A stretch of DNA of 64,000 nucleotides from Escherichia coli (lineage in GTDB: Bacteria; Pseudomonadota; Gammaproteobacteria; Enterobacterales; Enterobacteriaceae), in NCBI RefSeq assembly GCF_011045215.1, contig NZ_CP049201.1; one strand, given 5' to 3'. The translations under genes and the position numbers were made by a program. Numbering within the stretch: position 1 is the first letter of the stretch; each line of letters begins with the position of its first letter. Below, piece by piece: positions 18,894 through 29,458 of this stretch. The notes beneath the pieces were generated by a model. That model saw only the letters and a list, made by a program, of their open reading frames with translations, had not been told where the DNA came from and searched no databases.

Positions 18894-20156
18894 TTGAAAT
18901 ATAAAATAAAAAGATTGAAGAATAAAGATGGTATCAGAAGTTGCATTATTATTAATGAGAGCAACGGATTACCCTTGGTTTATTCTAACTTATATATGAG
19001 TGTTATTTCACGAACAAATAGCTATTCATTTTCAACAATGGAAGCAATAGCAAATGCTTTGCTTTTATTTGAAAGATATAATGCTTACATGAATGTGGAT
19101 GTTTTTGATATGGTAAATCCTGACATCGAAAAACTTGTCTCGAACAAAGGATATTTATTCGGGTTAATGAATGCCCTTTCTTACAGAAACGACTTAGAGA
19201 ATGTTACAAGCATTCTTAAAGAACAACATGTCTCTAAAAGAACCCTTTATTTCAAGATAATGACAATTGAAAATTACGTCAAATGGTTTTTTGATAACAT
19301 TGCTATCAATAATATTGATTCTTCTCGTTATGAAGCAATCAGTCGAGCATTTGATTTTATAAAGCCAAGAATAGAGAACGGAAAGAATTACAATATTGAA
19401 AGCGAAAGCAAATCATTGACAAATGAGCAAGTTACAACTTTGACTGATATGGTAAGTGTTAAATCTAAGATTAATCCATTTTCGGAGCATGTAAGGTTTC
19501 GAAATAATCTAATAATTAAAATTTTATTAGAGACAGGTATTAGGGGAGGGGAACTACTTAATATTAAGTTGGTTGATTTTGACTATGTCCACAAAAGTCT
19601 ATGCATAGTAAGAAGGCCAGATGATCAAAACGAACCACGATTAAGGCAACCATTGGTTAAAACTTTAGAAAGAAAAATACCATTGAGTATAGAATTGACT
19701 GAGTTAATACAGAATTATATTAGTGATTTCAGAGGTAAGCAGTGTCATGCAGGGGAGCATGACTATCTGCTTGTTACTCATAGCAGTAAAGGTCAATTAG
19801 GTCATGCATTAACTATTTCAGGTTATCAGAAAATTTTCGAACAAATTAGGAAAAATAGTAATGTTTTGAGCGATATTGTGGGGCATTCGCTAAGACATAC
19901 TTGGAATGTGAAATTCTCAGAAATGATGCTCATGAATTCGAACTCTCAGGAATATATTACTTATGAGAAAGTAAGAAATTATCTTATGGGGTGGAAAAAG
20001 AATAGTACAACCTCAGATATCTATAACCAAGCATTTATAGCACAAGAAAGCCGAAAAATAATGGCTGTTATTAATCCACTCAAAAACATAGTAGAGGACA
20101 AATCCAATGTTTCAAACTCTAAGAAAGCTACAAGAAAGTCAATATTCGGTTTTTGA
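18894..20156 (+). CDS. Tyrosine recombinase-like protein A (first of three tandem genes)
   Basis: 420 aa, probable TTG start; catalytic-domain elements TGIRGGE (Arg box), HSLRHT and a C-terminal Tyr (TSDIY). Confidence 0.75.
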   Translation: MKYKIKRLKNKDGIRSCIIINESNGLPLVYSNLYMSVISRTNSYSFSTMEAIANALLLFERYNAYMNVDVFDMVNPDIEKLVSNKGYLFGLMNALSYRNDLENVTSILKEQHVSKRTLYFKIMTIENYVKWFFDNIAINNIDSSRYEAISRAFDFIKPRIENGKNYNIESESKSLTNEQVTTLTDMVSVKSKINPFSEHVRFRNNLIIKILLETGIRGGELLNIKLVDFDYVHKSLCIVRRPDDQNEPRLRQPLVKTLERKIPLSIELTELIQNYISDFRGKQCHAGEHDYLLVTHSSKGQLGHALTISGYQKIFEQIRKNSNVLSDIVGHSLRHTWNVKFSEMMLMNSNSQEYITYEKVRNYLMGWKKNSTTSDIYNQAFIAQESRKIMAVINPLKNIVEDKSNVSNSKKATRKSIFGF

Positions 20157-21432
20157 AACCAAGGATGGTAATTTCAAAGTGAACTTTTCTTATTCCAAGT
20201 GGAAGATAAGTGAAAGTATAACATTGAACATTGATTCTTTAAGAGTGGTCATCAGTGCATATATACCTATCAAAACCACTTTGGCATATTTCGCTATAAA
20301 TTATAGTGCCAGTTATACTAAGAAAATGTTTTATGCAGTAAAGCATTACATTAAGGCCTGTAATACGAATGATAGCTTGTTTTCTAAAGATTGCATAAAG
20401 TATTACTATAAAGTTGTGAGCTCATTAGATTACACACATGCAGAGACAGTCAAATATTTTTTTATGAAGATGAGTGGTCTTTACCCATCTTTGTTTTCGG
20501 CAGAAGCAATCATATTTTTAGAAAATATTAAAGTTAAAAAAACAAATGCAAACAAGTCTATAAAGACACATGATTATAAAAAAGGTCCCTTTAGTGACTC
20601 GCAATTAAAGGTAATTATAGATTCTGTAGCGATAGCTTATAAGGAAGAAAAGGTAAGTCTGTCAAACTATCTGCTAACCTTCCTTGTTGCATATTCCGGG
20701 CGGCGACCTATGCAAATATCTCAACTTGAAGCTGGTGATCTCTTTGCTTTTAATGGAGAGTACTTTCTCAATATCCCAAGAATTAAACAACGAAATGGAT
20801 ATAGAAAAGAGTTTAGAAAATTACAAATTCCAGAAGAGCTTTTTAGCCAATTGACATATCTCGTTGAAGCTGTGAATTCGCTGGTCAGTGACACATTAAA
20901 AATCGATTTAAGTGAAAAACAAAAGAGAAAACTACCAATTTTTATAAACACATATCCATTCAAAAAAGGATGTGTTGAGCTAAACATGATTGAAAGTGGT
21001 GGATTAAAACTTAACCCCTATGCCATAACACTAAAAATAAGGAACACTATAAATCGTTCAATAAATGAATATCAAGCCTATCTGGGGTGTATAAATTCGC
21101 GCAGATTTAGATATTCATTAGGCACTAAGGTTGCACAATTGGGTTATAGTCCTTCACTGATAGCAAATGTTTTGGACCATTCTTCAATCAATTCTGTTAT
21201 GAGTTATATAGAAAATACAGCGGAAAATGGCAAGAGAATTAATGAAGCTGTAAATGAACTAATGAAGCCACTGGCTAACAAATTTATTGAGGGAAAAGAG
21301 CTTCAGAAAGAGTTAGATTCTTTGAAGCATTTGATAGAAGAATACTGCGGTGGATATAAAACTAACTCTTTTGATAATACAGCAATATCGTTAGTAACTA
21401 ATTCTATCGACGATATGATCAATAGCATTTAA
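20107..21432 (+). CDS. Tyrosine recombinase-like protein B (second of three)
   Basis: 441 aa; AYSGRRPMQISQLE Arg box, box II RRFRYSLGT with Arg in place of the usual first His, and a C-terminal Tyr (VMSYI); GAGGA ribosome-binding site; overlaps gene A by 50 nt. Confidence 0.7.
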   Translation: MFQTLRKLQESQYSVFETKDGNFKVNFSYSKWKISESITLNIDSLRVVISAYIPIKTTLAYFAINYSASYTKKMFYAVKHYIKACNTNDSLFSKDCIKYYYKVVSSLDYTHAETVKYFFMKMSGLYPSLFSAEAIIFLENIKVKKTNANKSIKTHDYKKGPFSDSQLKVIIDSVAIAYKEEKVSLSNYLLTFLVAYSGRRPMQISQLEAGDLFAFNGEYFLNIPRIKQRNGYRKEFRKLQIPEELFSQLTYLVEAVNSLVSDTLKIDLSEKQKRKLPIFINTYPFKKGCVELNMIESGGLKLNPYAITLKIRNTINRSINEYQAYLGCINSRRFRYSLGTKVAQLGYSPSLIANVLDHSSINSVMSYIENTAENGKRINEAVNELMKPLANKFIEGKELQKELDSLKHLIEEYCGGYKTNSFDNTAISLVTNSIDDMINSI

Positions 21433-21444
21433 AAGAAGGATAAA

Positions 21445-23052
21445 GTGATGAAAGAAATCCATGATAAAATGATTAATAACTTCATTATCGCTAATAAGGC
21501 CCATGCGAAAAATTTTGGAAATTTTGAGTGGGATAATTCAAGTTGGGGAGGCGGAATTACATTTTTTAGCGGAATCAAGGTTAGAATGGGGAACAAGAAT
21601 AAGAAATTAATGAATTATAACATTGCAGAGTTCGCAAAAGCATATGTATGGCATGAGTGCTTTCATGATTTATCTGTAGCTTTCAGAGTGCTGAGATTAT
21701 TTAGGATATTAGAAATTGCCATAGGTAAAACAAATAAAGAAGTTAAGATTTCAAGTATAGATCATAAAGTATTAGATGAAGTTATGACTATTGTTCAAGA
21801 AAATTTTGCAATATCCACTTCTTATAAAATATATTTAGATCTTAGGGTATTATGTTCTTTTATGTCTAAGAACGAAATGTTGCCAGAATCCATTACACGA
21901 TGGTCATATCCATTTAAGGCATATGATGCTTACACAAATAGCACAATGGATTCGATGGGAAATTTATCCAATCAGAAAAAACTTCCTGATGAAAAGGCTA
22001 TAGATTTTATTGGTAAAATATTTAGCTCTAATCCAGTTAATGAAAGGGATATATTTACATCTTCTATTTTTGCATTGCTCTTATGTGCTCCATCTCGAAT
22101 TAGTGAAATTATGCTTTTAGAAGAGGACTGTGAAGTTATAGTTGAAGATAGTAATGGCATATCAAGATATGGTTTGCGATTTCTTTCTCTGAAGGGCTTT
22201 GGATACAATACCAAATGGATTCCAGACTGTATGGTTTCTGTAGCTTCAAAGGCTATCATGCGATTGAAAAAACTTACAAGGAATGCAAGGGTTGTTTCTC
22301 GGTTAATAAAAGCAGGGGAAATTAATTTATACGAGTCATTAAACAAAAGTGCGTTTGATTGTTTAACAATTGAAGATCTCCACAAACTTGGCTTTGTTAT
22401 AAATCAATTAAATATCTCCCAAGAAAATCTAAAATTCTTGGCTAAGATAAAACATGGTACAGTCAGTGTAAAAGCATTTTGGATTTATATAGAGCGAAAG
22501 AATGTTAATTCTGAAAATATTAATGCTAATTTATGCTCCATAAATCATAATTTATTGGACTCTATCAAGGGTGCTGATATTTTTACAACAATTAAGGCAT
22601 CTTCAAAGTATTTTAGAGCGGATTTTCGCACCGATAATATGAATAACATATTTCATAGGAATATACATTTTAACTGTGATGGTTCTGTTTTAATTTTCCG
22701 CAGCCATCAAATTAGACATTTACTTAATACTATAGCTCAACGAAGCGTATTGTCAGAGATACAAATTGCCCAATGGTCTGGGAGAAGGAGTGTTAAGCAG
22801 AATTCAGTATATGATCATATGTCTCACAACGAGTTATCAGAACTATCAAGGAAACTATTGAACGGAAACACCTACGAAGAAACAAAAATTTCAGCATCTT
22901 CATTTAATGAACAATCGATTATTATGAATTTGATTAAAGATAAATTTGAAAAACTAGAATTAAAAATCCAAAATTCAGATCCAAGAAAAAGAAAATATAT
23001 TCTGGAAAAAATTAAAGATTTAAGATTGGAAATTGAATACATATTAATGTGA
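21445..23052 (+). CDS. Tyrosine recombinase-like protein C (third of three)
   Basis: 535 aa, GTG start; CAPSRISEI Arg box, HQIRHLL box II and a C-terminal Tyr (NSVYDH). Confidence 0.7.
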   Translation: MMKEIHDKMINNFIIANKAHAKNFGNFEWDNSSWGGGITFFSGIKVRMGNKNKKLMNYNIAEFAKAYVWHECFHDLSVAFRVLRLFRILEIAIGKTNKEVKISSIDHKVLDEVMTIVQENFAISTSYKIYLDLRVLCSFMSKNEMLPESITRWSYPFKAYDAYTNSTMDSMGNLSNQKKLPDEKAIDFIGKIFSSNPVNERDIFTSSIFALLLCAPSRISEIMLLEEDCEVIVEDSNGISRYGLRFLSLKGFGYNTKWIPDCMVSVASKAIMRLKKLTRNARVVSRLIKAGEINLYESLNKSAFDCLTIEDLHKLGFVINQLNISQENLKFLAKIKHGTVSVKAFWIYIERKNVNSENINANLCSINHNLLDSIKGADIFTTIKASSKYFRADFRTDNMNNIFHRNIHFNCDGSVLIFRSHQIRHLLNTIAQRSVLSEIQIAQWSGRRSVKQNSVYDHMSHNELSELSRKLLNGNTYEETKISASSFNEQSIIMNLIKDKFEKLELKIQNSDPRKRKYILEKIKDLRLEIEYILM

Positions 23053-23061
23053 GGAGATTAT

Positions 23062-23460
23062 ATGGCAAGAAAGTTTTATGATAAAGAAATAAAAGCTATT
23101 GTTAAACTTATTGAAACCTGGAGTAAGCCTGATTTCACTTGGGATTCTTTATGCGTGGCTTGCAAAAAAATTTTAGGTAAAGTACCTACACGGCAAGCAT
23201 TAAGCCAGCATAGTGAGATTGTCGTTGCGTATAGGACCAGAAAAAGATCTGGTATGGTTAAACGTCAAAATACGAAGTTACCCGGTAGCCTGAGCCTTGC
23301 GGCGAAAAGAATAGAACGACTTGAAAATGATAATTCGGCACTAAAATATGAAAATAATAATTTACTGCTTATGATTCAAAGAATGCACGAAAATGCTTAC
23401 AGGCATAATATATTGGCTTCTATTCTTGAAGAAGAATTTCCACAGAGAGCAAGAAAATAA
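23062..23460 (+). CDS. Small basic protein with a predicted coiled coil, coupled to the recombinase trio
   Basis: 132-aa ORF starting 9 nt after recombinase C; the C-terminal half (AAKRIERLENDNSALKYENNNLLLMIQRMHENAY) looks coiled-coil. Confidence 0.5.
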   Translation: MARKFYDKEIKAIVKLIETWSKPDFTWDSLCVACKKILGKVPTRQALSQHSEIVVAYRTRKRSGMVKRQNTKLPGSLSLAAKRIERLENDNSALKYENNNLLLMIQRMHENAYRHNILASILEEEFPQRARK

Positions 23461-23545
23461 TATTTTGATAGGTTTTATCTATTGACAGGTGATGTTAATA
23501 TGGTATTTGTAAATATAGTCAGGAAGACAAAACTAACTTGCAAGG

Positions 23546-23983
23546 ATGCAATTTATGGACAAACAACACAATTTTCCAGTGGAAACACTGGAAGAGCAGC
23601 TTATTATTATCGTTGATAAATATATCTCAAAACGGTACCAGCCGGGCGATAAAAGTTTCTCATACCAGCTATACCTGCTTTTTGTTGGCTATCACTTAAA
23701 GTATTTCTACCCCAAAAAACTTTATACTCGCTCTAATCGCAACATAGACAACATTATGACAATGTTTAGTTCTGTATACAAATGTCTTACAAGTACTTTG
23801 TTACAGCGATTAAATAATAAGGAAGCTGTTATCAGGGAGCTAAACTCTCTCGTTAACTATATTGATAACAATCAAGAACGAGCAGAAGAAATCTTTATAG
23901 CTATCAAAACTCAATATGAGATAAAAGCAATAGAGAAAGAACTAACCCATGAAGTCGTTAGAGTAAAAAATGTTAGATTATAA
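23546..23983 (+). CDS. Hypothetical protein
   Basis: 145-aa ORF followed by a terminator hairpin. Confidence 0.45.
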   Translation: MQFMDKQHNFPVETLEEQLIIIVDKYISKRYQPGDKSFSYQLYLLFVGYHLKYFYPKKLYTRSNRNIDNIMTMFSSVYKCLTSTLLQRLNNKEAVIRELNSLVNYIDNNQERAEEIFIAIKTQYEIKAIEKELTHEVVRVKNVRL

Positions 23984-23984
23984 A

Positions 23985-24010
23985 AGCTCCCGAAAGGGAG
24001 CTTCATTTTA
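23985..24010. terminator. Putative bidirectional terminator
   Basis: Stem agctccc/gggagct with a gaaa loop, flanked by A/T runs, between convergent genes. Confidence 0.6.
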
Positions 24011-24023
24011 CTAATTTTCTTTA

Positions 24024-24287
24024 TTAATAACTTCCTACTTGCCAGCCATCATCTGATTTTATTAATTTAACTGTTCCAGCTTGCTTTGTTCCGCTCATAT
24101 CCATAATTATATTGCACTTATAGCTTTTATCAGATTCTTTTGTGCAATCTACTTTTTTTACTGAAGTCAGATAGCTTCCAGTCCATTTTCGCATAGCTTT
24201 AAAAATATCATCTTGGGAAGGCTCACTACTACATGCAGTAAGAAGAAATACGGAAATAATAACAGCAAGGACCGAAGATATTTTCAT
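24024..24287 (-). CDS. Putative lipoprotein
   Basis: 87 aa; signal peptide with lipobox LLTAC. Confidence 0.6.
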   Translation of the reverse strand: MKISSVLAVIISVFLLTACSSEPSQDDIFKAMRKWTGSYLTSVKKVDCTKESDKSYKCNIIMDMSGTKQAGTVKLIKSDDGWQVGSY

Positions 24288-24311
24288 TAGACTTAATCCT
24301 GATTAAGTATG

Positions 24312-24698
24312 TTACTGAAAAATGCCAGATTTTGTATTATTATTATCAGTAGAGAATGTCCATTTGCTGACAATTTCGCCTTTAAAATCTATTTCAAGAG
24401 TTTTGGACTGAGTCTGTGAACCACCAGTTAGTAGCCCAACTACAGGAATGAAAGTCGAGGCATTGAACTGATTGTTATACATAAAATATCTCCATTGCTC
24501 GTTGCCATCATCAAGAGTCGTTCTTGTATCTGGTTCACCTAACTTAGCGAGTAGCTCGTTCTTAGTAGTCTTGTTTTTAATGATCTTTGACTGAAGACTT
24601 TGTGCAGTTTCATTTTCAATTTGTTGGTTCCCGGATGTTGAGCAGCCAGAAATTAAAAATATTGCAATGAAAAAGGCGGTAACAATAGATTTATTCAT
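24312..24698 (-). CDS. Putative lipoprotein
   Basis: 128 aa; signal peptide with lipobox LISGC. Confidence 0.6.
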   Translation of the reverse strand: MNKSIVTAFFIAIFLISGCSTSGNQQIENETAQSLQSKIIKNKTTKNELLAKLGEPDTRTTLDDGNEQWRYFMYNNQFNASTFIPVVGLLTGGSQTQSKTLEIDFKGEIVSKWTFSTDNNNTKSGIFQ

Positions 24699-24727
24699 TC
24701 TATCTTCCTTATTATATTTGGTCAGGG

Positions 24728-25006
24728 TTAACTTTTATGTGTGAAAACGGCTCTGTGGGCAAATTTCTTGCGTAAATAAAATCTTAAAGAAATTGCTGAG
24801 GCAAAATAGATAACGACAGTTAATATAAAACTTTGACTGATAGCGAATATGAAGAAAGCAATTACTAACAGCACAATTCCTATGAGTAAAGCTAACCAGG
24901 CCGAAGGTTCACCATAATTTATTGTTGCGTGACAGCCGATACAGACACGAACTCCGAACGGACTCTCTTTGAAGCAGAACGGGCACTTAATGGTCTCTTT
25001 ACTCAT
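24728..25006 (-). CDS. Zinc-ribbon membrane protein
   Basis: 92 aa; N-terminal CPFC...CIGC four-cysteine motif followed by two hydrophobic helices. Confidence 0.55.
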   Translation of the reverse strand: MSKETIKCPFCFKESPFGVRVCIGCHATINYGEPSAWLALLIGIVLLVIAFFIFAISQSFILTVVIYFASAISLRFYLRKKFAHRAVFTHKS

Positions 25007-25259
25007 ACAAACTCCGTTTATTCAACAGGTTCCTGATACTACAAATTGTTTAAAAATCATCAGGTTCTTTTCAGGGATTCTCGATGAATAATTATCTTTA
25101 GTAAAATCACTTGTACCGATCGATGTTTGAATCATGATAGGTAAAAACTATCATAACTAGATTATCGATCTGTATTAACGATCAATAATTTCTTGACATA
25201 ATATAAATTAGTTACTGTATAGTTAAGAGTGTTTGAGAATAATCAATACAAGTAATTGT

Positions 25260-26405
25260 CTATAAACGAATTTTTATCGCCTTGTTTAAAGGTTTCATTG
25301 CGTAGATATTTGAGAAGGTCGTGTGTGTTTTGTGAAGAATGGTCTTACCAAAGCTTCTCAGAAGCTCGATGTAATGCTTTATGGAAGCAAGCCACTCTAC
25401 GAATCTGAGATGCTTTTGCCGTTGTACTGCATTTTTTTGAAGAATCTTTCCTACGATTTCGTTTCGTTTGTCTTCTCTAAGCCGTAATTCCAGTTCTGCA
25501 ATTTTTTCAACGATACTTTCCTTTCTCTCAGTGGTTTTCAACACTGTTGCAGGAGCAGGAGCAGCAGGTTGGTCTTTTGTCGATATGTCGCTTCGTAGAG
25601 CTTCTAAGTGGTCGGGGTTGTAGTTAAGCCGATTACTGAGATTTGCCCAGGAGTAGCTCTTGCCCAATTGTGAAGCTTTGAAAGCTATGCCTGTGTATTC
25701 GAAAGAGAAGCCGTTCATTTTACCGGTAGAGGCAATATTGGCCTTCCAAGATACTTCAGCTTCTTCCAGCCTCTTGATAAAAGTTAGAAGGTCCGGCTTA
25801 TCAGATAAACTTTTATCAAGTATCTGCTGCAGAGCTTCTCTTGGTGAAAGCACCCCGGTTCGTTCCGATAGCATTTTCTCATTACGGGACACTCTCTTCC
25901 GCTTCGGTTGTGCTTGCGAGGGGGGAGATGCAGTTTTGGTCACTGTCAGGCCATGAGCGATTTCGAGTTTACTGATGATCTGTGTGCTGATGAGGTTTTC
26001 GTTCCTACCCAAGTAGAGCTTCCCACCATTGAGATCTATGCGACTTGCGATAATGTGTATGTGCTGGCCATCGTCGTCATGAAGCACATAGCAACGAAGG
26101 TGAGTATCCCTGAACCCCATCCTCTTCATGTAGTCATCTGCGATAATGGACCACTGTTCATTCGTTAGTGTTTCACCGTCGGGTAAGCGAAGTGAGTTGT
26201 GCCAAACGGGTTTTGCGACATCTAGGCGAAGATGCTTGGTGCTATCGAATTCAGCGATCATTTCAACGGCTGAATCACTTAACATGTTCCCGCCAATGAC
26301 GACTGGATCGCTTTTGTGGTGTGCTCCCGATTGTAATACATAACGAACAACACCAGCGAAGCTCTTACCCCTCTTGATCTTCCGCATACCCTTCACGAGG
26401 GACAC
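25260..26405 (-). CDS. Relaxase (MobA/VirD2-type mobilisation nuclease)
   Basis: 381 aa; three-histidine motif HDDDGQHIHII typical of the relaxase/mobilisation nuclease domain; overlaps the upstream mobC-like gene. Confidence 0.75.
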   Translation of the reverse strand: MSLVKGMRKIKRGKSFAGVVRYVLQSGAHHKSDPVVIGGNMLSDSAVEMIAEFDSTKHLRLDVAKPVWHNSLRLPDGETLTNEQWSIIADDYMKRMGFRDTHLRCYVLHDDDGQHIHIIASRIDLNGGKLYLGRNENLISTQIISKLEIAHGLTVTKTASPPSQAQPKRKRVSRNEKMLSERTGVLSPREALQQILDKSLSDKPDLLTFIKRLEEAEVSWKANIASTGKMNGFSFEYTGIAFKASQLGKSYSWANLSNRLNYNPDHLEALRSDISTKDQPAAPAPATVLKTTERKESIVEKIAELELRLREDKRNEIVGKILQKNAVQRQKHLRFVEWLASIKHYIELLRSFGKTILHKTHTTFSNIYAMKPLNKAIKIRL

Positions 26406-26739
26406 TCCAAAAATCTGTTCTTAACAAGTTGTGACGAAGCTCTTCAAGTTGTCGCTTCACAGCGAAAAGCTCTGTATGAGTAAGCTGGCTATCTTTACTC
26501 TTACTGTCGATATGGAGAGCAATACGATTCAACTTTTGTGATATGTCAGACAATTTTTTCCAGGCTTCAGTATTAATTGTCGGTACTACTGGTGGCAGGT
26601 TTTGCAGAAATGACATGCGGAGCCATTCACCTTTACTTTTATTACCTCGTTTTATATTTAAAATCTGTAATTCATTGTTGTTGAGTCGAACACTTATACA
26701 ATGTATTCTAATTCTGTCATCTAATCTTAATTTAGCCAT
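26365..26739 (-). CDS. MobC-like relaxosome accessory protein
   Basis: 124 aa; KLNRIALHI resembles the MobC N-L-N-Q-I-A-R motif; 41-nt overlap with the relaxase gene. Confidence 0.65.
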   Translation of the reverse strand: MAKLRLDDRIRIHCISVRLNNNELQILNIKRGNKSKGEWLRMSFLQNLPPVVPTINTEAWKKLSDISQKLNRIALHIDSKSKDSQLTHTELFAVKRQLEELRHNLLRTDFWSVPREGYAEDQEG

Positions 26740-26885
26740 ATAAGTTCCTTTTATATGATTTAATATGATTAATGATAGTTATTATTTCCCATTAGTCAAT
26801 AGCAGAACGGTTTTGATATATGGGTTTAATGTGCTAAAAATAAATCTCTCTGAAATAAAGTATTCAAAGATTCCCTAAATTAAAA

Positions 26886-28049
26886 TTAAGGATGATCTAT
26901 TGAAACAAACTTTTGACTAAACTCCAGCCATCTTGCATTATCAACATCCTTCACAAAAGCAATCAGACCTGCGACATGATTGTAAAAGCCAATTGGAGAG
27001 TCAAATTTTTCATGTCTTGCAACTTCTGAGAGACCAAATTTTTTTATTGAGTAAAGGTGGCGTTCAATACGTTTATAAGTTTGTTTAGATAATCGAGGGA
27101 CATTGCCATCAACAAGTAATCCTAAAACTATTTTTTTTGAACCAGGTCCAGCTACTCTTATTTTGCTTACGTTTTCTTTGAAATGGTGCTTACGAATGAT
27201 GCTGATAATGTTATTTTGTATTTTTCCAACCGAAACACCGTCGGGTAGAGTACCACCGCAGGATAATGTTATATCATCAGCATATCGAGTATAAGTGAAG
27301 CCATATTTATTAGCATATTCAGATAGAGAAATATCTAACTTTACAGTGGCTAAATTACTAAGCATTGGGCTACTCGGTGCCCCTTGAGGTAGCACTCCTA
27401 ACGGCCATGGTTCTGATATGTCCCAAAAAAGGCTCTTCTCTTTATTTTGTCCGTAAAGCTTATATTCCTTAGTTGAGTGCTTAGGAACAGAAATTAGAGA
27501 TTGTAAATGTTGTGGTAAACGTATAGTTGTGCATAGCCTTGATAGTTCAAATGCTATTAATGGCCGATATCCAGCATTTTTAAAAACCATATAAACATCA
27601 GATTCATTTATTGAATAAAAGAAATCGGAAATGTCGAATTGGAAGAGCCATTTAGCACCACAATGCTGTTCTGCACATTTTCTGATGCCACCATTAGGAT
27701 GGAAAGCAAAAGAAGTATTATGGGGAACTAACTTTTTTAATATTTCACTATTGATGAAATGCTGTACTTTAAATATCTCGCCAGTTACAGCATGAATATG
27801 GCGTCTTCCACCTGAACGTTTTTTTATAGCAAACATGCGATAATTTGCTGATTCACGGCGGCGTGATACAGTGGATCGTAGCAAGCGATAATCAACACCA
27901 GTAATTTTTGAAAGATGGCGTAATGTAAAAATTACAGGGAGATTATTTTTCTTCAGATTACTTGCATAATTTCTTAAGTTTAGAGCCTGTGTCTTCCCTA
28001 AGGATGACTCTGCATTTTGATAAAGTTGGTGTGCTGACCAGATTTCCAT
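26886..28049 (-). CDS. Reverse transcriptase, retron-type or defence-associated
   Basis: 387 aa; motifs FDISDFFYSI, LPQGAPSSP, catalytic YADD, and a thumb-like KIRVAGPGSKKIVLGLLV; no maturase, endonuclease or other extra domain. Confidence 0.85.
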   Translation of the reverse strand: MEIWSAHQLYQNAESSLGKTQALNLRNYASNLKKNNLPVIFTLRHLSKITGVDYRLLRSTVSRRRESANYRMFAIKKRSGGRRHIHAVTGEIFKVQHFINSEILKKLVPHNTSFAFHPNGGIRKCAEQHCGAKWLFQFDISDFFYSINESDVYMVFKNAGYRPLIAFELSRLCTTIRLPQHLQSLISVPKHSTKEYKLYGQNKEKSLFWDISEPWPLGVLPQGAPSSPMLSNLATVKLDISLSEYANKYGFTYTRYADDITLSCGGTLPDGVSVGKIQNNIISIIRKHHFKENVSKIRVAGPGSKKIVLGLLVDGNVPRLSKQTYKRIERHLYSIKKFGLSEVARHEKFDSPIGFYNHVAGLIAFVKDVDNARWLEFSQKFVSIDHP

Positions 28050-28237: not shown

Positions 28238-29458
28238 TCACTCATCATTGTTTAACGGCTGAACGGAGTGCTGATCAGCACACCAAGACTCTGGAATGTA
28301 AAGACCAAAATCCCATACACTATCGTTTTTAACATGCCTAGAATTTACAAGTATGTCAAGTCCGAATTTAGATAATCGTTTTTGAGTTGTCAATAGTCCT
28401 AATGTCTCTGCATATATGAGTAGTTTTTCTACATACGAACAATCAACATTCAAACGTAAGGCAATGCTTTTGTTATCTCTGACACCTCTTTTTATAAGTT
28501 TTAGTAAATTTATAATTTCGGGAGATAAAGATGAATGGGGGGAAGTGTTATGCTTTGTTCCATTTTCTAACAAGGCAAGCAGCCATCCTGGAATTGCTCT
28601 ATCAGGCATTAGTCCTTGCCATTTTTTATTAGAAAACCATAGTATTCCAGGAAGGTTATTAGGGACGCTATGATAAAAAATTATATTAGATAAAACATTA
28701 CCATAGCCAAGACGAGCCCATGGAGGAATTTTGGTTTGATTTTTACAAAGATTGATTATTTCATTATACTGCTCACCCCACCGAGTTTCTAACCAATTTT
28801 CATTATATACGATGTTACTTATGAAATTGATTTTTTCAGATTTTCTATATTTTCTTACTCCATGGTCTGAGCCGCGAATAGTATTGATTATTCTATTTTC
28901 AGAACCTAGTGTTCTGGCGAAAGAAATTAAAGTTAATCTTACTAGTCCTAAACTCCACCAACTTAAAAAGGTAGGGTTATCGAGCATGGCATTAATAAAT
29001 CCGGATACTCTATCACCACTACCAATCGAATCATCAATAAGTAAAAAATCGTTGACTTTAGATTTTTTCAGATCATTGAGTGATGGATGATCTAAAAACA
29101 TAGTTTTATTAGACCGCACAAGGTTTGAAATAATTGAATATACTAAGTCTTCGCTACCTTGCGAATGACCTGGTCTATTAACAACATCACCATTAAGGTC
29201 CCATAATACTTGTTTGTCTGGATCTAATTTGCGAACTGAATAAAGGGCATAATTTTTATTTTTTGGTAAATCAGAAATGCTCTTTTGAAGCCATATGGTA
29301 AACTCATCTCTACTTACAAAAGTTAACTTGCTCAAGATGTTTTTTGCAATCGCTTTTTGGCTGCTATTAAATTGCATAAGCCATTGAGCTATTTCCTGAG
29401 AGGATTCAATTTTTTCTACTGAAAGTATTTTAAATTTAGGTTTGTCTCTTGTTTTCAT
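28238..29458 (-). CDS. Phosphoribosyltransferase-like protein with a C-terminal helix-turn-helix region (candidate effector)
   Basis: 406 aa; PRPP-binding-type motif FLLIDDSIGSGDRVSG in the N-terminal half; HTH-like KSIALRLNVDCSYVEKLLIYAETLGLL near the C-terminus. Confidence 0.65.
   Translation of the reverse strand: MKTRDKPKFKILSVEKIESSQEIAQWLMQFNSSQKAIAKNILSKLTFVSRDEFTIWLQKSISDLPKNKNYALYSVRKLDPDKQVLWDLNGDVVNRPGHSQGSEDLVYSIISNLVRSNKTMFLDHPSLNDLKKSKVNDFLLIDDSIGSGDRVSGFINAMLDNPTFLSWWSLGLVRLTLISFARTLGSENRIINTIRGSDHGVRKYRKSEKINFISNIVYNENWLETRWGEQYNEIINLCKNQTKIPPWARLGYGNVLSNIIFYHSVPNNLPGILWFSNKKWQGLMPDRAIPGWLLALLENGTKHNTSPHSSLSPEIINLLKLIKRGVRDNKSIALRLNVDCSYVEKLLIYAETLGLLTTQKRLSKFGLDILVNSRHVKNDSVWDFGLYIPESWCADQHSVQPLNNDE

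Follow-up and report, generated by a model that had tools for sequence, protein, structure and literature searches.

The agn43 (flu), P22-type gtr and Salmonella opvAB loci are switched by OxyR half-sites that embed GATC sequences, at which OxyR binding and Dam methylation are mutually exclusive. To our knowledge, every locus that carries such a switch changes the cell surface; at gtr and opvAB phage resistance is traded against fitness. The gtr control region has three half-sites, with GATCs in the outer two and none in the central one, and in this it is similar to the element described below. Phase-variable phage resistance is the outcome at opvAB and gtr, and opvAB encodes small inner-membrane proteins (PMC3350482); the OxyR half-site has been described as a "10-nt consensus" and the 31-32 bp spacing found at opvAB as canonical for reduced OxyR (PMC4856963). 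OxyR also binds the ucl promoter of extraintestinal pathogenic Escherichia coli (ExPEC) in gel-shift assays, and single-nucleotide polymorphisms (SNPs) at positions -78 and -76 shift ucl expression, the share of fimbriated cells being 12% in one case and 79% in another, a sign of cell-to-cell heterogeneity (Hancock et al., 2022, PMC9236248). Here we analyzed a 64,000-nucleotide (nt) stretch of E. coli DNA (contig NZ_CP049201.1 of assembly GCF_011045215.1; hereafter the window), in which three small minus-strand genes lie downstream of the mobilization genes of a genomic island and are preceded by a conserved element with three OxyR-like half-sites and three GATCs. The locus is a mosaic and probably a phase-variable envelope operon, housed in the accessory slot of a probably mobilizable island of the GInt type. 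The fuller reading that we favor, at a little less than even chances, is a phase-variable envelope operon controlled by OxyR and probably by Dam, whose products likely serve exclusion or receptor masking. The operon and its control element, which are read from the minus strand, consist of the following parts:

25168-25182, minus strand: OxyR-like half-site A, ATCGTTAATACAGAT, 7/10 consensus positions, with GATC1 (25180-25183) and GATC2 (25167-25170) at its ends
25137-25151, minus strand: central half-site B, ATAGTTTTTACCTAT, 10/10 positions, ATAG-N7-CTAT, no GATC
25106-25120, minus strand: OxyR-like half-site C, ATCGGTACAAGTGAT, 7/10 positions, with GATC3 (25118-25121) at its upstream end
25077-25105, minus strand: predicted promoter, -35 TTTACT (25100-25105), 17-nt spacer, -10 GAGAAT (25077-25082), start near 25070
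24728-25006, minus strand: ZnR92, a zinc-ribbon protein of 92 amino acids (aa), predicted to lie in the inner membrane (open reading frame, Cys4 motif, family alignment)
24312-24698, minus strand: 128-aa lipoprotein with lipobox LISGC and a predicted BamE-like fold (open reading frame, AlphaFold2 model, PHROG match)
24024-24287, minus strand: 87-aa lipoprotein with lipobox LTAC, mature domain predicted as one helix and a curved four-strand sheet
23984-24003, no strand assigned: G+C-rich hairpin terminator, AAGCTCCC-GAAA-GGGAGCTT, between the operon and a convergent 145-aa gene

The short palindromes around CGATCG and ATCGAT that a first-pass annotation of this DNA had pointed out at 25090-25210 are indeed present, and they make up the three-half-site element. 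The consensus of the OxyR half-site is reportedly ATAGnTnnnAnCTAT, which B matches in full; A and C carry, in place of the ATAG and CTAT ends, bases that make up GATC. The window holds only two perfect half-site matches, B and ATAGGTTTTATCTAT, and the A-B-C triple occurs in it once and is missing from the unrelated loci that were examined. Among 32 distinct relatives, B scores 8-10/10 and both A and C score 7-8/10; the centers of A and B are 31 nt apart in 32/32 and those of B and C in 30/32, a distance that would suit an OxyR tetramer bound along one face of the DNA helix. Counted from B, the GATCs lie at -32, -19, and +30 in 31/32, 32/32, and 30/32 relatives, respectively, and the other two have the third GATC at +31. 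What variation there is falls mainly on positions that the OxyR consensus leaves unspecified. In a comparison of 40 loci the interval 25080-25200 forms a peak of non-coding conservation as strong as that of the relaxase catalytic domain, and it is the best-conserved non-coding element of the island backbone, with the adjacent coding DNA kept in only 3-5 loci. The 16-mer CATCGATCGGTACAAG is present in 33 of 47 loci, and wherever the neighbors were mapped it lies between the relaxase gene and the first gene of the slot.

A blastn search of the element against plasmids led to IncF plasmids such as pVir68, where the matched region precedes f17A by 140-220 bp, and the element is found in 727 of 5,426 complete E. 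coli genomes. Among these copies are those upstream of the chromosomal, F17-like uclABCD operon in strain NU14 and in the same island backbone in O157:H7. The ucl/F17 promoter element is homologous to that of the window and organized in the same way, with an A box carrying two GATCs, a B box of the form ATAG-N7-CTAT and a C box carrying one GATC, 31-32 bp apart and in the same order relative to the genes. At ucl it is the central box that OxyR binds and that sets what fraction of the cells expresses the fimbriae. The two differ in what follows, chaperone-usher fimbriae there and small envelope proteins here, and in the -35 and -10 hexamers. The mutagenic oligonucleotides used for ucl identify position -78 (the G/T SNP) as the G of the central ATAG, which makes consensus position 6, a T, the site of -76. 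Applied to NU14, the distance of 78 nt downstream from this G points to a promoter, TTGAAA-17-GATGAT, directly after half-site C. The predicted promoter of the window operon was placed by position from this ucl promoter, and its aligned -10 box is conserved. In the ucl/F17 promoters (NU14, L066 4000-4075; pVir68, L062 4990-5075) three conserved GATCs are present in the outer half-sites. The sequences suggest that there may be a so far undescribed Dam component in Ucl/F17 phase variation. A further likeness is to agn43 of E. coli K-12, where the region of GATC-II/III is about 75% identical to half-site A over 40 nt with identical GATC spacing. A blastn search of the element against phage genomes, made with gtr-type relatives in mind, gave no match.

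Several other sequences in the upstream region were considered. The TTGACA hexamer mentioned in the first-pass annotation exists (25193-25198), on the plus strand, facing away from the operon and outside the predicted promoter; it is directed toward the relaxase gene, at its 3' end, is kept only in the closest relatives, and could be an antisense promoter or nothing. As the main promoter, a promoter-like TTAATA-17-TATGAT that overlaps A and B was discarded: relatives do not keep the key A in the second position of its -10 box. A conserved leader peptide (37-aa open reading frame (ORF), 25022-25135) was also rejected, as its ATG is not kept in relatives. An Rfam scan of 23800-27200 gave only chance microRNA-level matches, which makes a known RNA element in the leader unlikely.

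The three minus-strand ORFs reported by the first-pass annotation at 24024-25006 were all found, together with what it had read in them: a Cys4 zinc ribbon (CPFC...CIGC) followed by two hydrophobic helices in the first, and classical lipoboxes (LISGC and LTAC) in the second and third. Spacers of 29 and 24 nt separate the genes; both contain a sequence resembling a ribosome-binding site (AAGGA/AGGA), and the corresponding sequence of the zinc-ribbon gene is GGAG; we infer that the three genes form one transcription unit. In pairwise comparisons with relatives the ratio of nonsynonymous to synonymous substitution rates (dN/dS) is 0.12-0.24 for ZnR92, 0.06-0.25 for the 128-aa protein, and 0.12-0.32 for the 87-aa protein, and therefore all three are real, constrained coding genes. 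Diversifying selection, a sign of an arms race, was looked for in the three genes and purifying selection was found instead. A megablast search of the 1.4-kb locus against plasmids gave no match, and profile searches of the three protein families against PDB sequences returned nothing significant.

ZnR92, which has the CPFC...CIGC zinc ribbon at its N terminus, reads MSKETIKCPFCFKESPFGVRVCIGCHATINYGE, then forms two hydrophobic helices linked by a loop of 3-4 residues, and ends in a basic C-terminal tail (RKKFAHRAVFTHKS; RKKFAHRAVFTH). Its predicted topology is N-in/C-in, a helix hairpin with a periplasmic loop of 3-4 residues. In 33 ZnR92 homologues C8, C11, C22, C25, H26, Y31, and G32 are invariant. 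The close family is confined to Enterobacterales, and a profile search of 1.8 billion representative proteins extended it to about 183 clusters, mostly of 90-105 aa, with the same layout; the wider family keeps a C-terminal R-V-x-F-x-R motif. Members of this wider family are found in diverse settings: on 3.9-kb plasmids of just five genes with a MobA_MobL relaxase, among the pilin genes of a 42-kb Klebsiella plasmid, and in an ordinary chromosomal context in Caballeronia. On an integrase-bearing Pseudomonas island (L057/L058, 7001-8758), whose defense cargo differs between its two genomes, a distant ZnR-type protein adjoins a lone TrbL/VirB6-family gene.

The first-pass annotation could name a family for none of the three proteins. 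The middle one can now be placed: a 90% identical E. coli protein (WP_001547654.1, L001) is named "SEN1984 family lipoprotein" by PGAP, and the 128-aa lipoprotein matches phrog_3135 (E 3e-23), a family of unknown function. No SEN1984 model matched in the NCBIfam library of hidden Markov models, so the PGAP name probably comes from a BLAST rule. By sequence, the resemblance to BamE (SmpA/OmlA), a lipoprotein of the BAM complex, is below threshold: the Pfam BamE model (PF04355) scored 13.7 bits (E 0.056), short of its curated cut-off of 23.2 bits, and a profile search of the family against PDB sequences retrieved no BamE. By structure, an AlphaFold2 model of the 128-aa lipoprotein (predicted local distance difference test score (pLDDT) 81.5) has a fold resembling that of BamE, in which two helices pack against a sheet of three strands, and in a Foldseek search of the PDB the six best matches were all BamE chains (probability 0.90-0.98, template-modeling score 0.50-0.62), but with E-values of 0.04-0.15. 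The strands of the model are longer than those of BamE, and the gene differs from housekeeping bamE in being carried on mobile elements. SEN1984 of the Salmonella island ROD21 was likened to BamE by Phyre2 (PMC10655114), and on ROD21 it stands in a similar run of relaxase, small membrane protein, and lipoproteins (PMC10655114, PMC3198454). Homologues of 33-44% identity are found on Burkholderia conjugative plasmids and phage-plasmids; those of the lambdoid phages S107 of Salmonella and PhiR26_1 of Escherichia (40-44%) immediately follow cI, with which they share the strand, and a 36% identical homologue adjoins a repressor-like gene in a Herbaspirillum phage-plasmid. In lambda, the position after cI is that of genes expressed in the lysogen.

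The last protein carries the PGAP label "cell wall-binding protein" and belongs to a family found only in Enterobacterales, with two conserved cysteines in the mature domain. It was modeled with a cystatin/NTF2-like fold (pLDDT 80); the modeled fold is generic and gives no pointer to function. Its weak PHROG match to Rz-like spanins (E 0.005) covers the signal peptide only (residues 6-25). Both lipoproteins have Ser at position +2, which by the usual sorting rule directs them to the outer membrane. The homology and structure searches proposed at the outset supplied two predicted folds, BamE-like and cystatin/NTF2-like, and no homology to known exclusion proteins.

A relaxase-anchored search yielded 37 loci from species-level Enterobacterales genomes, in which the operon occupies a variable slot of a common backbone. 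The gene order is mobC, relaxase, slot, and then, on the convergent side, the 145-aa gene, a ginD-like gene, and recombinases. Nearly all loci have the mobC-relaxase pair, and most of those long enough to show it have the recombinase side. The mobilization genes that the first-pass annotation had placed next to the trio are in the window a relaxase and a MobC/NikA-like gene, upstream and on the same strand:

26365-26739, minus strand: MobC/NikA-like accessory protein (weak NikA-like match, E 0.008), nearly always paired with the relaxase in related loci
25260-26405, minus strand: MobA/VirD2-type relaxase, 381 aa, intact (PF03432, E 1e-23), upstream of the operon
23546-23983, plus strand: convergent 145-aa backbone gene
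18894-23460, plus strand: three tandem tyrosine recombinases and a 132-aa protein, a ginABCD-type module with conserved synteny, the convergent half of the backbone

Where the gene chain could be called, the first gene of the slot usually encodes a membrane protein (of the ZnR, DUF4755, 265-aa or 222-aa type), with 0-2 lipoprotein genes behind it in all combinations. The slot contents seen were:

ZnR alone: L021
ZnR and the small lipoprotein, without the BamE-like gene: L006 and L008-L010
ZnR, BamE-like protein, and small lipoprotein: the window, L001, L011, L013, and L014
DUF4755 protein (PF15947, two N-terminal helices), alone or with a BamE-like or other lipoprotein: L018-L020 and L031-L040
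265-aa two-helix protein and both lipoproteins: L023 and L026
one lipoprotein only: L017

Synonymous divergence changes sharply from one gene to the next: in the comparison of the window with L011, the last gene has a dS of 0.08 and the BamE-like gene one of 1.2, and at the ZnR gene dS is saturated. The shuffled slots and the unequal dS values therefore indicate that the operon is a recombination mosaic of independent units and no fixed three-protein machine. This goes against the first-pass view of the trio as a unit: the genes are not co-conserved, each being found without the others, and the zinc-ribbon gene is replaced at the same position by non-homologous two-helix membrane proteins. The literature on DUF4755 and on recombinase trios associated with relaxases offered nothing useful. 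The slot of the window is predicted to deliver three separately exchangeable envelope proteins, an inner-membrane zinc ribbon facing the cytoplasm, a BamE-like lipoprotein of the outer membrane, and a small lipoprotein of cystatin fold.

The following mechanism is proposed for the switch. Transcription would start from the promoter that abuts C, downstream of the three-half-site OxyR operator, and OxyR would occupy either A+B or B+C. GATCs covered by OxyR would stay unmethylated, while Dam methylation of the uncovered half-site would stop OxyR from shifting to it. Both states would therefore be heritable, giving rise to ON and OFF lineages, and only one of the two would activate the promoter, following the logic described for gtr, opvAB, and agn43 (PMC4856963, PMC3350482). 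In ON cells the proteins may alter or occlude components of the envelope, most likely with the effect of excluding phage or conjugative DNA, and OFF cells would be spared the cost. For the window this scheme is deduced from the layout of the element and its homology to an OxyR-bound promoter, and dependence on Dam, bistability, and the exclusion function are proposals.

A costly envelope-masking function would fit the switch, because the known switch loci alter the surface and gtr and opvAB trade resistance against fitness. Three more observations would fit such a function: phage homologues of the BamE-like protein occupy a lysogen-type position, anti-phage cargo flanks the islands, and orphan surface-exclusion lipoproteins have a precedent on integrative mobilizable elements (PMC11493245). 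Like the window operon, agn43, gtrABC, and opvAB are horizontally acquired, and they alter the surface, as the window operon probably does; there is no homology between Ag43, GtrABC or OpvAB and the window proteins. Among conjugative systems, TraS/TraT of F, Eex/TrbK, Sfx of IncC and integrative mobilizable elements, and MbeD of ColE1 likewise combine an inner-membrane protein and outer-membrane lipoproteins beside transfer genes. Non-homologous replacement at a fixed position, as seen in the window slot, is also a trait of exclusion proteins. In contrast, TraS, TraT, Eex, TrbK, Sfx, and MbeD show no sequence or profile similarity to the window proteins (Pfam, NCBIfam), and the window island has no mating-pair genes of its own. 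No homology to Llp of T5 or Cor of phi80/N15 was detected; the position of the BamE-like homologues next to cI is that of lysogen genes such as RexAB and SieB.

Several results weigh against the proposed switch or the proposed function. The predicted -35 and -10 hexamers are weak, matching at 4/6 positions each, and the paper that established OxyR binding at ucl mentions neither Dam nor GATC (PMC9236248). A direct interplay of ZnR92 with the lipoproteins is unlikely because almost nothing of it is exposed to the periplasm. Pfam and NCBIfam gave no known exclusion, immunity or defense protein as a match for any of the three, the PHROG matches are confined to families of unknown function, and PADLOC had no match for the three proteins or for the alternative slot proteins. 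Of the two roles that the first-pass annotation had offered, an exclusion-type role is still the best guess, and abortive infection found no support. A more detailed version, in which the cassette is switched, the BamE mimic binds a machine or receptor of the outer membrane such as BAM/BamA or another porin-type receptor, and the cystatin-fold lipoprotein and zinc ribbon block later steps of DNA entry, so that part of the population is shielded from phages, contact-dependent toxins or competing conjugative DNA, is a speculation that we consider rather unlikely to hold in full.

Two other readings of the operon come next in probability, and both appear improbable to us. The first takes it as a module for host interaction or fitness (serum resistance, modulation of adhesion or tolerance of envelope stress) instead of exclusion. 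It draws on a promoter shared with adhesins (ucl, F17, and in part agn43) and on ROD21 of Salmonella Enteritidis, where the lipoprotein SEN1982 and the BamE-like SEN1984 are found behind a relaxase and a small membrane protein and the loss of SEN1982 is reported to attenuate organ colonization (PMC10655114). It has to contend with the anti-phage cargo that most of these islands carry on both sides, and with the phage homologues of the BamE-like protein, whose place next to cI is typical of exclusion genes expressed in lysogens.

In the second, which we hold to be equally improbable, the first membrane protein of the slot (ZnR92 or DUF4755) is a mobilization accessory that tethers the relaxosome to the membrane or to the coupling protein of a helper, and the lipoproteins are passengers. 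It would then be comparable with MobB of R1162/RSF1010 and MbeB/MbeD of ColE1. A two-helix membrane protein follows the relaxase directly in nearly every backbone, the zinc ribbon and the basic tail are predicted to face the cytoplasm, and distant homologues are among the five genes of the MobA_MobL plasmids and beside the lone TrbL gene of the Pseudomonas island. Yet the slot is filled by non-homologous proteins and in some loci (L017) by no such protein, the operon has its own fimbria-type OxyR promoter and is not part of the mob operon, and the ZnR family is also present in non-mobile chromosomal contexts.

An interpretation of 25090-25200 as the island's origin of transfer (oriT), with an inverted repeat and a nick site and with leading-region genes downstream that are the first to enter the recipient, was considered early on and appears very unlikely. 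In its favor, no other non-coding sequence of the backbone is as well conserved, the element comes immediately after the relaxase gene, its TGATAG-N7-CTATCA lies within a 27-nt imperfect repeat that is followed by an invariant 15-mer, and no conserved sequence was found upstream of mobC in the window. It was downgraded because the same element stands upstream of fimbrial operons: all three boxes precede f17A and uclA, where there is no relaxase. In addition, conservation tracks the OxyR consensus with a phasing of exactly 31 bp, and many relatives have a separate promoter and inverted repeat, AGCATAnGGAnTATGCT, upstream of mobC as an alternative oriT or operator. Least probable is a membrane toxin with partners (holin/spanin-like or toxin-antitoxin) or an abortive-infection module, for which the small two-helix ZnR92 and the weak Rz-like spanin match of the 87-aa protein could be cited, but that match is limited to the signal peptide, no endolysin or antitoxin-like partner is present, PADLOC found nothing, and purifying selection and the stable carriage of ZnR alone in L021 oppose an unneutralized toxin.

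Turning to the island itself, the recombinase module comprises ORFs at 18894-20156, 20107-21432, 21445-23052, and 23062-23460, and PF00589 was matched on homologues of the recombinases. Three tandem recombinases and a small protein are the architecture of GInts (PMC5385486, PMC10121019), and the assignment to this type is by gene architecture. GInts carry defense systems in E. coli (PMC10121019). In the paper that defined them transfer could not be shown and a relaxase is not mentioned; the subfamily described here (18894-26739 of the window, with L001, L006, and L008-L042) is probably mobilizable, because the MobC-relaxase pair is conserved. The island is located at tRNA-Leu(CAA), that is leuX, and the flanking core genes lptF, lptG, and ahr are 99% identical to those of E. 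coli. The host islands mostly carry anti-phage cargo on either side, namely Gabija-like genes, ToxN, Abi, and a retron-type reverse transcriptase. In the window mobC is directly preceded by the retron-type reverse transcriptase gene (26886-28049), which gives a match to NF038233 (retron St85 family; E 1e-51, below the curated cut-off) and is followed by a 406-aa ORF (28238-29458). Its position looks like a variable defense slot, since the cargo there differs in the closest E. coli relatives.

The mobilization genes also vary among relatives. In the closest E. coli relatives, 96% identical over the operon, which are E. coli 120899 (L002, 13331-19184) and five similar genomes, IS100 and IS66-family insertions interrupt the relaxase gene. 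In several relatives a dinucleotide-type repeat of variable length separates the N- and C-terminal parts of the relaxase gene (L012, 10786-10968; L014, 10792-10950; L020, 10777-10992), and its opposite strand reads as poly(Ala-Gly); the window relaxase has only a short Pro/Ala stretch (AAPAPA) at this position. About 40-110 nt upstream of mobC many relatives (L017-L039) have TTGACA-17-TATAAnT followed by the inverted repeat, a candidate operator or oriT; in the window the repeat is missing and TTGACT-16-TATCAT stands there (26799-26772). The second perfect OxyR-type half-site of the window is in the convergent half of the backbone:

23468-23482, plus strand: half-site ATAGGTTTTATCTAT, upstream of the 145-aa gene, abutting a TTGACA, no GATC

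This half-site falls within a second peak of non-coding conservation (23460-23550), between the genes of the 132-aa (ginD-like) and 145-aa proteins, and it is kept in about 20 related loci. The backbone itself may thus be regulated by OxyR.

The locus adds a variant to the known OxyR/Dam-switched surface loci on mobile DNA, and it provides a concrete regulatory model for an uncharacterized gene set that is common in Enterobacterales. If the operon is a switched exclusion cassette, it would be the first Dam/OxyR-switched exclusion module on a mobilizable island, and one portable switch cassette would drive both fimbriae and exclusion genes. The SEN1984/phrog_3135 family, found beside cI, on phage-plasmids, and on islands, becomes a candidate for a new class of exclusion factor expressed from lysogens and islands. 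The comparison also suggests that the ucl/F17 fimbrial promoter may be a portable Dam-sensitive switch that mobile elements have reused for unrelated surface genes.

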